A DNA stretch of 1,389 nucleotides from a phage, in sequence record OR845984.1. One strand, written 5' to 3'. The position numbers and the translations under genes are program-made. Below are positions 2-1,389 of the stretch, piece by piece. Each line of letters starts with the position of its first letter. Within the stretch, counting starts at the first letter, position 1. A model generated the notes under the pieces. It was not told the origin of the DNA. It saw only the letters and a list, made by a program, of their open reading frames with translations, and searched no databases.

Positions 2-1051
2 CGTGAACATCGCTGCCGTCTGGTTACACTGCCGCACAAAGATATCAACGAATGCCTGATGAACGGCGTCGCTGAGGATGAAATCTGGCAGTACATCGGT
101 ACAGCGTCATATTTCGACCCCGAAGAGCTTTACAGCGCCCGTGAGTTTTATCAGGACACCATCAATGCTTTCTACGGCAAGCAGCAGTATCTGTTTAACC
201 CACCGTGGGAAACGCTGGCTTACAACTTCCAGTTCCGTGAGGCGGAGTTAACGCTTGTCAATGGCGTGAACGGTCACGGAAAAACGGAGGTTGTCGGGCA
301 TATGGCACTTGAGGCCATGAGACAGGGGATAAAAACATGCGTCGCATCGCTTGAACTGAAGCCCGGGATTCTGCTTAAACGCCTGACCCGGCAGTCTACA
401 TGTTGCAAAATGCCGCCAGTTCTGGAAATCGAATCAGCATTTAAGTTTTACGATGACCGGCTCTGGTTATTTGGCCTGACAGGTACAGCCAAGGCTGAAC
501 GCCTGATTGAAATTTTCACATACGCCAGACGGCGATACGGCATCCAGTTATTCATCATCGACAGCCTCATGAAGTGCGGTATTGGCGATGACGATTACAA
601 CGGGCAAAAGGCGTTTGTTGACGCGCTGTGCGACTTCAAGAATAAAACCAACTCTCACATTATTCTCGTCACTCACTCCAGAAAGGGAGACAGCGAGGAG
701 AAACCTACCGGAAAGATGGACGTAAAAGGCTCAGGAGCGATTACAGACCTGACAGATAACCTGTTTATCATCTGGCGCAATAAAGCTCGCGAGAGAGCGT
801 TACAGCGCGTTCAGGCTGGCGAGCAAATTAACGAGAAAGACCAGCAACTTCTTGCTTCGCCCGCATCTGTTTTAATGCTTGAGAAGCAGCGGAACGGGGA
901 GGGGTGGGAAGGTGGCGTGCCGTTATTTCTTGACGAACAGTCTCACCAGTTCCTGCAAATGGAAGGTGCATCACCATACAACTACATAGCTAACATGCCT
1001 AAGTCGGAGTATGACGAAGTGTGGAGGCAGGAGAATGTTACGGAGTACTGA
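2..1051 (+). CDS. 5'-truncated bifunctional DNA primase-helicase (T7 gp4-like): C-terminal end of a TOPRIM primase domain followed by a complete DnaB-family SF4 helicase domain
   Basis: Open frame from nt 2 with no stop before the ATG at 59, so the gene starts upstream of the window. Stop TGA at 1049-1051. Helicase motifs read directly from the translation: Walker A GVNGHGKT (nt 263-286); H1a SLEL with the catalytic Glu (nt 347-358, cf. DnaB SLEM); Walker B LFIIDSL (Asp at nt 560-562); H3 ILVTHSRK (His at nt 674-676); H4 KGSGAITDLTDNLFIIWRN (nt 725-781, cf. DnaB RGSGSIEQDADLIMFIYR); arginine-finger region EKQRNG (nt 884-898, cf. DnaB AKQRNG). The first visible residues LPHKDINECLMNG (nt 29-67) resemble the end of the T7 gp4 TOPRIM domain (LP-x-KD-x-NEC-x-x-NG, recalled from memory), and the roughly 80-residue spacing to the Walker A lysine matches gp4. 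Confidence 0.85.
   Translation, partial: REHRCRLVTLPHKDINECLMNGVAEDEIWQYIGTASYFDPEELYSAREFYQDTINAFYGKQQYLFNPPWETLAYNFQFREAELTLVNGVNGHGKTEVVGHMALEAMRQGIKTCVASLELKPGILLKRLTRQSTCCKMPPVLEIESAFKFYDDRLWLFGLTGTAKAERLIEIFTYARRRYGIQLFIIDSLMKCGIGDDDYNGQKAFVDALCDFKNKTNSHIILVTHSRKGDSEEKPTGKMDVKGSGAITDLTDNLFIIWRNKARERALQRVQAGEQINEKDQQLLASPASVLMLEKQRNGEGWEGGVPLFLDEQSHQFLQMEGASPYNYIANMPKSEYDEVWRQENVTEY
1042..1045 (+). promoter_or_regulatory. Shine-Dalgarno (GGAG) for ORF2, lying inside the 3' end of the helicase gene
   Basis: GGAG at nt 1042-1045, 6 nt upstream of the ATG at 1052; the helicase stop TGA (1049-1051) is immediately followed by that ATG (TGAATG), consistent with translational coupling. Confidence 0.5.
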
Positions 1052-1330
1052 ATGAACAACCAAATAATACCTGAAATGCTTTTGAATCCCCGCTTCATTG
1101 CTGTTTTGAACAGATGTATCGACGAAGAAGAGCTCATTATGCAATTTGAAAGGTTGTCAGGTGTCACTCGACCACCAAAGGGGCAACATCCAATAGAGCT
1201 GATGGTTGATAAAGCGACAGGATTTTCTGATGAGCAGTGGAAACGGTTTTTTGAAGCATTTATCCCGTTCGTCTATGAGTTTATATGGCTCACATGGAGA
1301 GACCGTGACAATGAGGAGTGCTGGCAATGA
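1052..1330 (+). CDS. hypothetical small acidic protein (92 aa), function unknown
   Basis: ATG at 1052 directly abutting the upstream stop, with an SD at appropriate spacing; uninterrupted 92-codon frame ending TGA 1328-1330. Translation has about 16 acidic versus 10 basic residues and an aromatic-rich C-terminal third (FFEAFIPFVYEFIWLTW, 4 Trp in the last 30 residues). No motif I can assign to a known family. Confidence 0.6.
   Translation: MNNQIIPEMLLNPRFIAVLNRCIDEEELIMQFERLSGVTRPPKGQHPIELMVDKATGFSDEQWKRFFEAFIPFVYEFIWLTWRDRDNEECWQ
1313..1318 (+). promoter_or_regulatory. Shine-Dalgarno (GAGGAG) for a possible third ORF
   Basis: GAGGAG at nt 1313-1318, 8 nt upstream of the ATG at 1327, which overlaps the ORF2 stop (ATGA). 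Confidence 0.4.
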
Positions 1331-1389
1331 CTATCTACATCACTGAGCTAATAACAGGCCTGCTGGTAATCGCAGGCATTTTTATTTGG
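1327..1389 (+). CDS. possible 5' end of a small membrane protein (3'-truncated by the window edge); only 21 codons visible
   Basis: ATG at 1327-1329 overlapping the ORF2 stop TGA 1328-1330, with a GAGGAG SD 8 nt upstream. Translation MTIYITELITGLLVIAGIFIW is strongly hydrophobic, consistent with an N-terminal transmembrane helix. Caveat: the same bases can form a terminator-like hairpin plus T-tract (next feature), and T-rich sequence alone yields hydrophobic codons. Confidence 0.3.
   Translation, partial: MTIYITELITGLLVIAGIFIW
1358..1387 (+). terminator. candidate weak intrinsic terminator (alternative reading of the ORF3 region)
   Basis: 6-bp stem GCCTGC (1358-1363) / GCAGGC (1372-1377), 8-nt loop TGGTAATC, then ATTTTTATTT (1378-1387), about 28 nt after the ORF2 stop. 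Stem is short and the T-tract is interrupted, so it is weak at best. Confidence 0.25.

Follow-up and report, generated by a model that had tools for sequence, protein, structure and literature searches.

The 3' end of a phage replication operon very probably opens a lambdoid ninA/tR2 module, a terminator nested in a probably translated micro-ORF

The 1389-nt stretch of phage DNA analysed here (the window) very probably ends in the start of a lambdoid ninA/tR2 module (positions 1313-1389), in which a terminator is nested within a micro-ORF that is probably translated; the module lies where the replication genes of the early rightward (pR) operon meet the nin genes. An initial annotation of these bases had offered either the opening of a membrane-protein gene or the end of the operon. 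Neither a new membrane-protein gene nor a defence effector is present at the 3' end of the window; rather, the module represents the boundary beyond which delayed-early transcription depends on the phage antiterminator. The placement of tR2 within ninA has been known since 1982, and a 2016 study took the overlap apart by experiment; the finding itself is ordinary. The features needed for the argument, all of which lie on the (+) strand and are given in window coordinates, are as follows.

2..1051, (+) strand: 3' portion of the gene for a primase/helicase (homologs: ES18 gp61 and epsilon34 gp52); its 5' end lies outside the window, and it is given as context only
1052..1330, (+) strand: 92-aa ORF with no function assigned, homolog of ES18 gp62 and epsilon34 gp53; stop codon TGA at 1328-1330
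1313..1318, (+) strand: Shine-Dalgarno (SD) sequence GAGGAG for ninA, read from the sequence, 8 nt 5' of the ATG
1327..1389, (+) strand: first 21 codons of ninA, MTIYITELITGLLVIAGIFIW, open to the window end; match to phrog_5907; the full ORF has 24-27 codons in relatives
1356..1379, (+) strand: tR2 hairpin footprint; the canonical 8-bp stem is 1356-1363/1372-1379 with loop 1364-1371, and here only 1358-1363/1372-1377 pair
1378, (+) strand: A1378 (C in the consensus), which breaks the pair G1357-C1378, strands A1356-U1379, and turns the Leu of ninA codon 18 into Ile
1379..1387, (+) strand: U-tract TTTTTATTT, read from the sequence

Two genes precede the module. The primase/helicase gene is 94-99% identical to its annotated relatives, and its product matches phrog_239 (DNA primase/helicase, E = 1.4e-92) and Pfam AAA_25 (29.2 bits, cut-off 27), together with a sub-threshold match to DnaB_C. 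The 92-aa ORF that follows matches phrog_5692 (E = 3e-54) and has no match in Pfam, NCBIfam or PADLOC. Many relatives do without this ORF, and in these ninA comes directly after the primase/helicase gene. In the window, the ninA start codon (1327-1329) overlaps the TGA of the 92-aa ORF, creating the sequence ATGA at 1327-1330; this stop-start overlap and the GAGGAG 8 nt upstream of the ATG had both been pointed out in the initial annotation, and both are indeed there. The window shares 98.6-99.9% identity with S.Kent 1-2-1, g341c, and epsilon34, all of them P22-like phages of Salmonella, and 94% with ES18. The gene order in the annotated relatives at 98.6% identity is nutR, tR1, cII, O, primase/helicase, gp53, the module, and then ninB through Q.

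The module itself is widespread. About 420 phage records, lambda and P22 among them, contain a segment of about 75 bp that is 95-99% identical (a 150-nt epsilon34 probe returned 420 phage records, with the lambda match at 40567-40702). From the ATG onwards, lambda (J02459, 40567-40643), P22, 933W, and Lahn2 align base for base. When ES18, epsilon34, and S.Kent are added to this alignment, homology begins exactly at the ninA ATG and extends for about 75 bp, up to the ribosome binding site (RBS) of the next gene; the genes lying 5' of the homology block (ren, gene 12, gp62) are unrelated between phages.

The gene name ninA is established in the literature on lambda, P22, and epsilon34. Sequence records treat these bases in several ways. 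An 81-nt NinA CDS is entered in epsilon34 (gene 54) and ES18 (gp63), a Rho-independent terminator and no NinA in g341c, and both a NinA CDS and a terminator labelled tR2 in 933W, Lahn2, and the curated record of P22. PGAP/RefSeq usually calls no gene at this position. A peptide of 26 aa is below most gene-calling limits. The conflict is only apparent, because both layers are real on the same bases. Thus, tR2 and ninA are best entered together, with the curated P22 record as the model.

Viewed in the window alone, the hairpin rises only weakly above chance, and it is the comparative evidence that is decisive. A pattern scan locates at 1358-1363/1372-1377 a stem of 6 pairs (5 G-C) with an 8-nt loop, and then ATTTTTATTT. 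This is the 6-bp GC-rich hairpin of the initial annotation, which was described correctly for this copy but understates the stem of 8 bp seen in relatives. The scan reports 2 terminator-like sites in the window versus 1.5 +/- 1.2 in shuffles, and the terminator prediction and folding energy that had been suggested as a check recover the hairpin with a 40-nt fold of -11.6 kcal/mol (z = -2.5; 6 of 200 shuffles fold as well). The 21-codon open frame is by itself unremarkable, and a search of Rfam gave no family within E <= 1. A terminator-like match on the minus strand (1377..1358) was dismissed, since it is this hairpin's own palindrome followed by a weak run of T (CTGTTATT). In relatives, the canonical 8-bp stem folds at -15.7 kcal/mol (z = -4.2). 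All 34 bases of the TR2 oligo used by Li et al., aacaggcctgctggtaatcgcaggcctttttatt, match the window save for position 1378, and the spacer between the NinA RBS and start in that study has the same sequence as the window.

The properties of the lambda terminator can be drawn upon for this reason of sequence identity, and the functional data considered here all come from lambda in E. coli. In the absence of N, every pR transcript that gets past tR1 is stopped at lambda tR2 (PMC7084815), the efficiency of this terminator in vivo is about 0.9 (Li et al. 2016, PMC4824070), and in vitro it releases RNA at U7/U8 of the U-tract (preprint 10.64898/2026.05.29.728758). Transferred to the window, these termination points would fall at 1385/1386, within ninA codon 20.

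Variation among copies of the module also points to a terminator that is maintained. Among copies with the stem found in the window (type A), 3 of the 4 variant alleles in the stem, 33C>T, 51C>T, and 52C>T, still pair through G-U (in this ORF numbering, ninA position 52 is window position 1378). A second allele (type B), present in 94 contigs, has at the same position a 10-bp stem of unrelated sequence, GGGGCTATTT...AGTAGCCC, followed by a T6 tract; it folds at -14 to -17 kcal/mol and, with its T tract, has the same total length as type A. The stems of types A and B are in different registers, so that their columns are not homologous. A third variant is a type B stem with a compensatory change from U-A to C-G, and in five type B copies a 1-nt deletion cuts ninA to 7 codons while the hairpin is kept. 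Finally, in 22 contigs a gene for an HNH_3 + AP2 endonuclease is inserted in ninA just 5' of the hairpin, and tR2 directly follows the stop codon of the inserted gene. Together, these patterns argue for a genuine terminator that selection has maintained across the copies; terminator activity itself was demonstrated in lambda.

The one base at which the window departs from lambda tR2 lies within this stem. Position 1378, which is A in the window, is C in 7 of 7 aligned relatives, and the change from C to A leaves 6 of the 8 stem pairs and weakens the fold from -15.7 to -11.6 kcal/mol, a loss of 4.1 kcal/mol. With the resulting G-A mismatch, the stem is no longer intact, and its paired portion ends 2 nt short of the U-tract. 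The mismatch bears on whether the terminator has full efficiency and leaves the homology to tR2 untouched. A1378 is present in 9 IMG/VR viral contigs, which have 3 different upstream genes and 4 different downstream junctions, and in none of the 9 is there a compensating change in the 5' arm. An exact 30-nt probe spanning A1378 had no match in genome_contigs, and the exact 63-nt ninA haplotype of the window had no match in metagenome_contigs; the best viral contig matched at 62 of 63 positions. Counted from the main release site U8, as in the tR2 preprint (10.64898/2026.05.29.728758), 1378 is position -9, and the same work reports that GC at -11/-10, which adjoins -9, is critical for tR2. A1378 is a rare natural allele, predicted from the lost pairs to be leakier than lambda tR2, and this copy may be a poor terminator. 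Its recurrence in several mosaic backgrounds is consistent with an allele that may tune the leakiness of the checkpoint before nin and Q.

The coding layer raises a separate question, namely how far the frame from 1327 extends. The initial annotation had considered a membrane protein as the third member of the replication operon, possibly a superinfection-exclusion protein, a toxin, or an abortive-infection (Abi) effector; on this reading the protein would have tens to hundreds of residues and the hairpin would be incidental. A good SD, the ATGA overlap, and a strongly hydrophobic N-terminus are all as such a gene would have them, and in one relative (L080) the ninA frame is fused in phase to a 109-aa ORF. 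However, the frame is short nearly everywhere else that it was followed. The initial annotation had held that an in-frame stop within a few codons of 1389 would count against a membrane protein, and extension downstream, carried out on the relatives, finds such a stop 3-6 codons past 1389. The frames of the four closest relatives close 5-6 codons past 1389 and encode 26 or 27 aa; within the IMG/VR sample 24-27 aa are encoded in 112 of 125 copies; and all 9 of the A1378 contigs have the stop 3-6 codons after 1389. In addition, searches of PADLOC, Pfam, and NCBIfam with the peptide gave no match, a result that also leaves the exclusion, toxin, and Abi proposals without a counterpart in those collections, and the hairpin is that of lambda tR2, a proven terminator. 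Consequently, a substantial membrane protein is refuted for the relatives and is given practically no chance in the window, and what is left of the proposal is a hydrophobic micro-ORF of 26 aa.

Judged from these relatives, ninA of the window should have 24-27 codons, with a stop codon that overlaps the next start and a 3' end that lies outside the window. When the geometry of the downstream junctions was read from the sequences of the sampled copies, about 9 of 10 different junction types had a ninA stop that overlaps or abuts the start codon (ATG or GTG) of the following gene. A query composed of the 21 residues encoded in the window and the 5-residue tail of a relative (L076) matches phrog_5907 (function not known, 27 positions) with E = 2.7e-17 over positions 1-26. 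The C-terminal tail of NinA varies (GRGKS, GRVNRG, GRGKCG, GRVIGGFKK, and others).

Is this short frame translated, or is it an annotation artefact whose hydrophobicity simply reflects the composition of a hairpin and a U-tract, so that only the terminator is real? The terminator-only annotation of g341c and the usual absence of a PGAP/RefSeq gene would fit an artefact, as would a peptide whose function is not known in a nin region that has been reported to be dispensable. Furthermore, an L-to-Q change in the hydrophobic core of NinA is found in 7 copies, and occasional frameshifts and one premature stop are also seen; since these are tolerated, constraint on the peptide is not strict. Nevertheless, several lines of evidence argue against an untranslated frame. 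The ATG is kept in 122 of 122 canonical copies, which were found by anchoring on the hairpin and thus are unbiased for the 5' part. At the ends of 7 of 7 unrelated upstream genes, GGAG or AGGGG is present 6-8 nt before the ATG, and the stop codon overlaps or abuts the ATG, so that a correctly spaced SD and start recur at the same place in each. The frame is then open exactly to the next start across about 10 downstream junctions. Within codons 2-10, 8 of 13 variant alleles are synonymous versus the 23-31% expected (p about 0.01-0.05, in a small test of 13 alleles that are not independent events), and the non-synonymous changes in these codons are conservative (I/V, I/M, T/S, T/A). For the residues that the hairpin and U-tract encode, hydropathy is 2.50, compared to 0.33 +/- 0.76 for random terminators, and just 0.18% of the latter (20,000 simulated hairpin + U-tract sequences, random frames) reach 2.50.

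Work in lambda speaks to the same issue. The start site of lambda NinA was described as "not weak" (Li et al. 2016, PMC4824070). Its presence halves the output of an upstream reporter, for which non-stop decay has been proposed as the cause, and mutation of either the NinA RBS or its AUG restores the output and raises tR2 efficiency from 0.72 to 0.86-0.87 (Li et al., PMC4824070). Li et al. also cite the lambda ribosome profiling of Liu et al. 2013 for NinA. Thus, the conserved SD, the synonymous bias, and the activity of the lambda start site in reporters suggest that the coding layer of ninA is translated and selected, and a terminator accompanied by an untranslated frame is very unlikely. 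The 26-aa NinA peptide has been ignored for 40 years; the comparative data suggest that it is under selection.

Translation of ninA could matter without the peptide mattering. The nin region has been described, with reference to Kroger and Hobom 1982, as a chain of ATGA-interlinked genes. Within such a chain ninA might serve as a bridge, at which termination and reinitiation at the ATGA junctions pass ribosomes on from the last replication gene to the first nin gene while the peptide itself is functionless. The start/stop overlaps, which are kept in every mosaic context, are what a bridge of this kind would require, and a C-terminal tail that varies freely and a core that tolerates L-to-Q would be expected of it. 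However, a bridge has no need for the synonymous bias in codons 2-10, nor for a hydropathy that only about 0.2% of terminator-encoded peptides reach. In the HNH-interrupted allele, moreover, the replacement tail of ninA is again hydrophobic, although it is free of the hairpin constraint; this tail is AT-rich, which favours Ile, Leu, and Tyr codons. On balance, a bridging role with a functionless peptide is quite possible, at somewhat less than an even chance.

Given a terminator and a translated ORF on the same bases, the module of the window would probably operate as follows. RNA polymerase that starts at pR and is unmodified would release its transcript at about 1385/1386, and this termination at tR2 would keep the nin genes and the late activator Q from being transcribed. 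Once an N-type antiterminator has modified it at nutR, the polymerase would instead read on to ninB through Q. In this respect, the suggestion in the initial annotation that the operon ends at the hairpin holds for unmodified polymerase and fails once an N-type antiterminator overrides tR2. The bases of the hairpin and U-tract are also ninA codons 10-21, with ninA one link in the ATGA-chained nin genes, and its translation would yield a very hydrophobic micro-peptide. Because release of the RNA falls inside codon 20, full-length NinA would be made solely from read-through transcripts; terminated transcripts would carry a stop-less ninA, on which ribosomes would encounter no stop codon. Ribosomes that finish the 92-aa ORF would stop at the ATGA, which is separated from the hairpin by 26 nt. 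In the natural-sequence series of Li et al., tR2 efficiency was 0.83 with a 23-nt spacer and 0.92 with 28 nt (PMC4824070); given this series, the native 26-nt spacing would be just enough for near-maximal termination. In the window, the C-to-A change at 1378, by removing the two stem pairs that adjoin the U-tract, would make the terminator leakier than that of lambda.

A terminator within a short translated ORF also brings to mind a leader-peptide attenuator, in which the position of the ribosome on ninA would set whether the tR2 hairpin forms and thereby govern entry into the nin region. Ribosomes can certainly interfere with tR2: with a stop codon 5-8 nt upstream its efficiency is 0.15-0.25, and NinA translation reduces it from about 0.87 to 0.72 (Li et al., PMC4824070). 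This latter effect is small, however, and a ribosome cannot catch the polymerase <=30 nt from the start (Li et al., PMC4824070). In the window, the 77 nt from 1313 to 1389 fold no better than shuffles (z = +0.39), with the terminator hairpin the sole structure predicted, and ninA lacks a run of regulatory codons. What is established as controlling tR2 is antitermination by N (PMC7084815). An attenuator is therefore improbable. The initial annotation had also allowed that both of its signals could be true, as an attenuator inside a gene; of this, the coexistence of the two signals stands, and the attenuator, which finds no competing structure and a translation effect of only 0.87 to 0.72, is unlikely.

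Taking the nested ninA/tR2 arrangement one step further, NinA may be a genuine membrane micro-protein that is gated by antitermination, with a coding sequence that co-evolved with the terminator and, in A1378, a leaky tR2 that relaxes the dependence on N. Taken together these proposals are tentative, and we regard the combination as rather doubtful. If they are correct, terminated transcripts would be subject to non-stop translation and tmRNA-mediated decay. Co-evolution of the two layers would explain why the type A and type B hairpin/peptide alleles are interchangeable and why the HNH insertion brings a hydrophobic tail with it. The A1378 allele would relax the N-dependence of nin and Q expression.

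The closest known system is lambda tR2 itself (about 40,596-40,629, between ren and ninB), whose hairpin, loop, and U-tract are identical to those of the window except at 1378. The two terminators occupy the same place in the pR operon, after the replication genes and before ninB through Q, and are nested in ninA in the same way. They differ in the 5' neighbour, which in lambda is ren following P and in the window is an ES18 gp62-type ORF following the primase/helicase gene, and in the hairpin, which in lambda has an 8-bp stem at -15.7 kcal/mol and in the window a 6-bp stem at -11.6 kcal/mol. The ninA genes of lambda, P22, epsilon34, and ES18 (phrog_5907) share with the window the ATG, the first 17 residues, the SD, and the overlap with the upstream stop. 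Residue 18 is Leu in these relatives and Ile in the window, and the 3' partner of ninA varies, being ninB in epsilon34 and a hydrophobic ORF with a GTG start in S.Kent. The type B allele (for example, that of L047, MTIYITELITGAIYTVALFYWIKNEG...) has its first 10 ninA codons and its position in common with the type A allele of the window. It likewise consists of an in-frame hairpin and U-tract that encode a hydrophobic peptide ending in L-F-x-W, whereas its stem (10 bp, 5-nt loop, T6) is entirely different and its peptide residues 12-20 are unlike those of type A. Finally, ninA/tR2 resembles the leader attenuators trpL, thrL, and pyrBI in having a short translated ORF that lies over or ahead of an intrinsic terminator, whose hairpin can be suppressed by a nearby ribosome. 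Unlike these leaders, however, ninA/tR2 has no anti-terminator helix or regulatory codons and shows a small effect of translation, and its control is exerted by a processive antiterminator protein.

The loss of the last G-C pair of the tR2 stem in the window, through the C-to-A change at position 1378, is natural, and it was found again in nine IMG/VR viral contigs (L076, L127, and L152-L158). These nine contigs carry three kinds of upstream genes and four kinds of downstream junctions, a variety of flanking sequence which suggests that the A1378 allele has spread by recombination. In six of the nine, it is accompanied by an A-to-G change at ORF position 28 (Thr10 to Ala).

A second allele of the conserved ninA/tR2 module, type B, was found in 94 contigs; in one of these, L047, it lies at about 9183-9290, on the minus strand of the locus. 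Type B and the canonical (type A) module share identical first 10 ninA codons; the type B hairpin, a 10-bp stem (GGGGCTATTT/AGTAGCCC), is unrelated to the canonical stem and comes with a T6 tract, with hairpin and tract together encoding the peptide MTIYITELITGAIYTVALFYWIKNEG... One variant, contig L080, contains a compensatory change from U-A to C-G. In another contig, L179 (five copies), loss of 1 nt right behind the ATG (ATGAC-ATC) reduces ninA to only 7 codons. Since the type B hairpin and U-tract are undamaged in all five frameshifted copies, the terminator can persist without the ORF.

ninA can also be split: in contig L014 (6334-7079), an AT-rich insert of ~690 bp follows roughly the first 10 codons. 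This arrangement was seen in 22 of the 118 non-canonical contigs, including L014, L099, L184, L195, L220, L226, and L247. The insert encodes a 203-aa, homing-endonuclease-like protein with HNH_3 and AP2 domains, and it provides the interrupted ninA with a new hydrophobic tail (34 aa in all, MTIYITELIAGLSLLMVLTVYIIKYILYANKKTN). The TAA of the inserted gene is followed at once by the canonical tR2 hairpin, which is retained.

Downstream of the module, ninA is not followed by ninB in the closest relative, Salmonella phage S.Kent 1-2-1 (L003, 3901-4020). The next gene there is a GTG-start ORF, beginning VADWQIPIVILAGASLVAGFILLKKHKDRDQ..., whose GTG lies 8 nt inside the 3' end of ninA and whose product, like that of ninA, is small and hydrophobic. 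In L080 (about 993-1320) the ninA frame reads on, without a change of phase, into an ORF of 109 aa that carries CxxC..CxxC motifs (CQRCNGTG...CQCCGG), the only case among the sampled copies of a long product from the ninA ATG; an internal ATG (MPKKYDMY...) is probably this downstream gene's own start.

Upstream, the window contains:

1052-1330: 92-aa ORF (phrog_5692, unknown function), between the primase/helicase gene and ninA

This ORF occurs in some relatives only. In many P22-like phages ninA lies directly behind the primase/helicase stop, resulting in two-piece matches with 80% coverage.

Because the conserved module begins at ATGA, the spacer between the stop of the upstream gene and the tR2 stem is a constant 26 nt (window 1331-1356). 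In the natural-sequence series of Li et al. (PMC4824070), a 23-nt spacer gave a termination efficiency of 0.83 and a 28-nt spacer one of 0.92; judged against this rise, the native 26-nt spacing coincides with the very point at which ribosome interference ceases.
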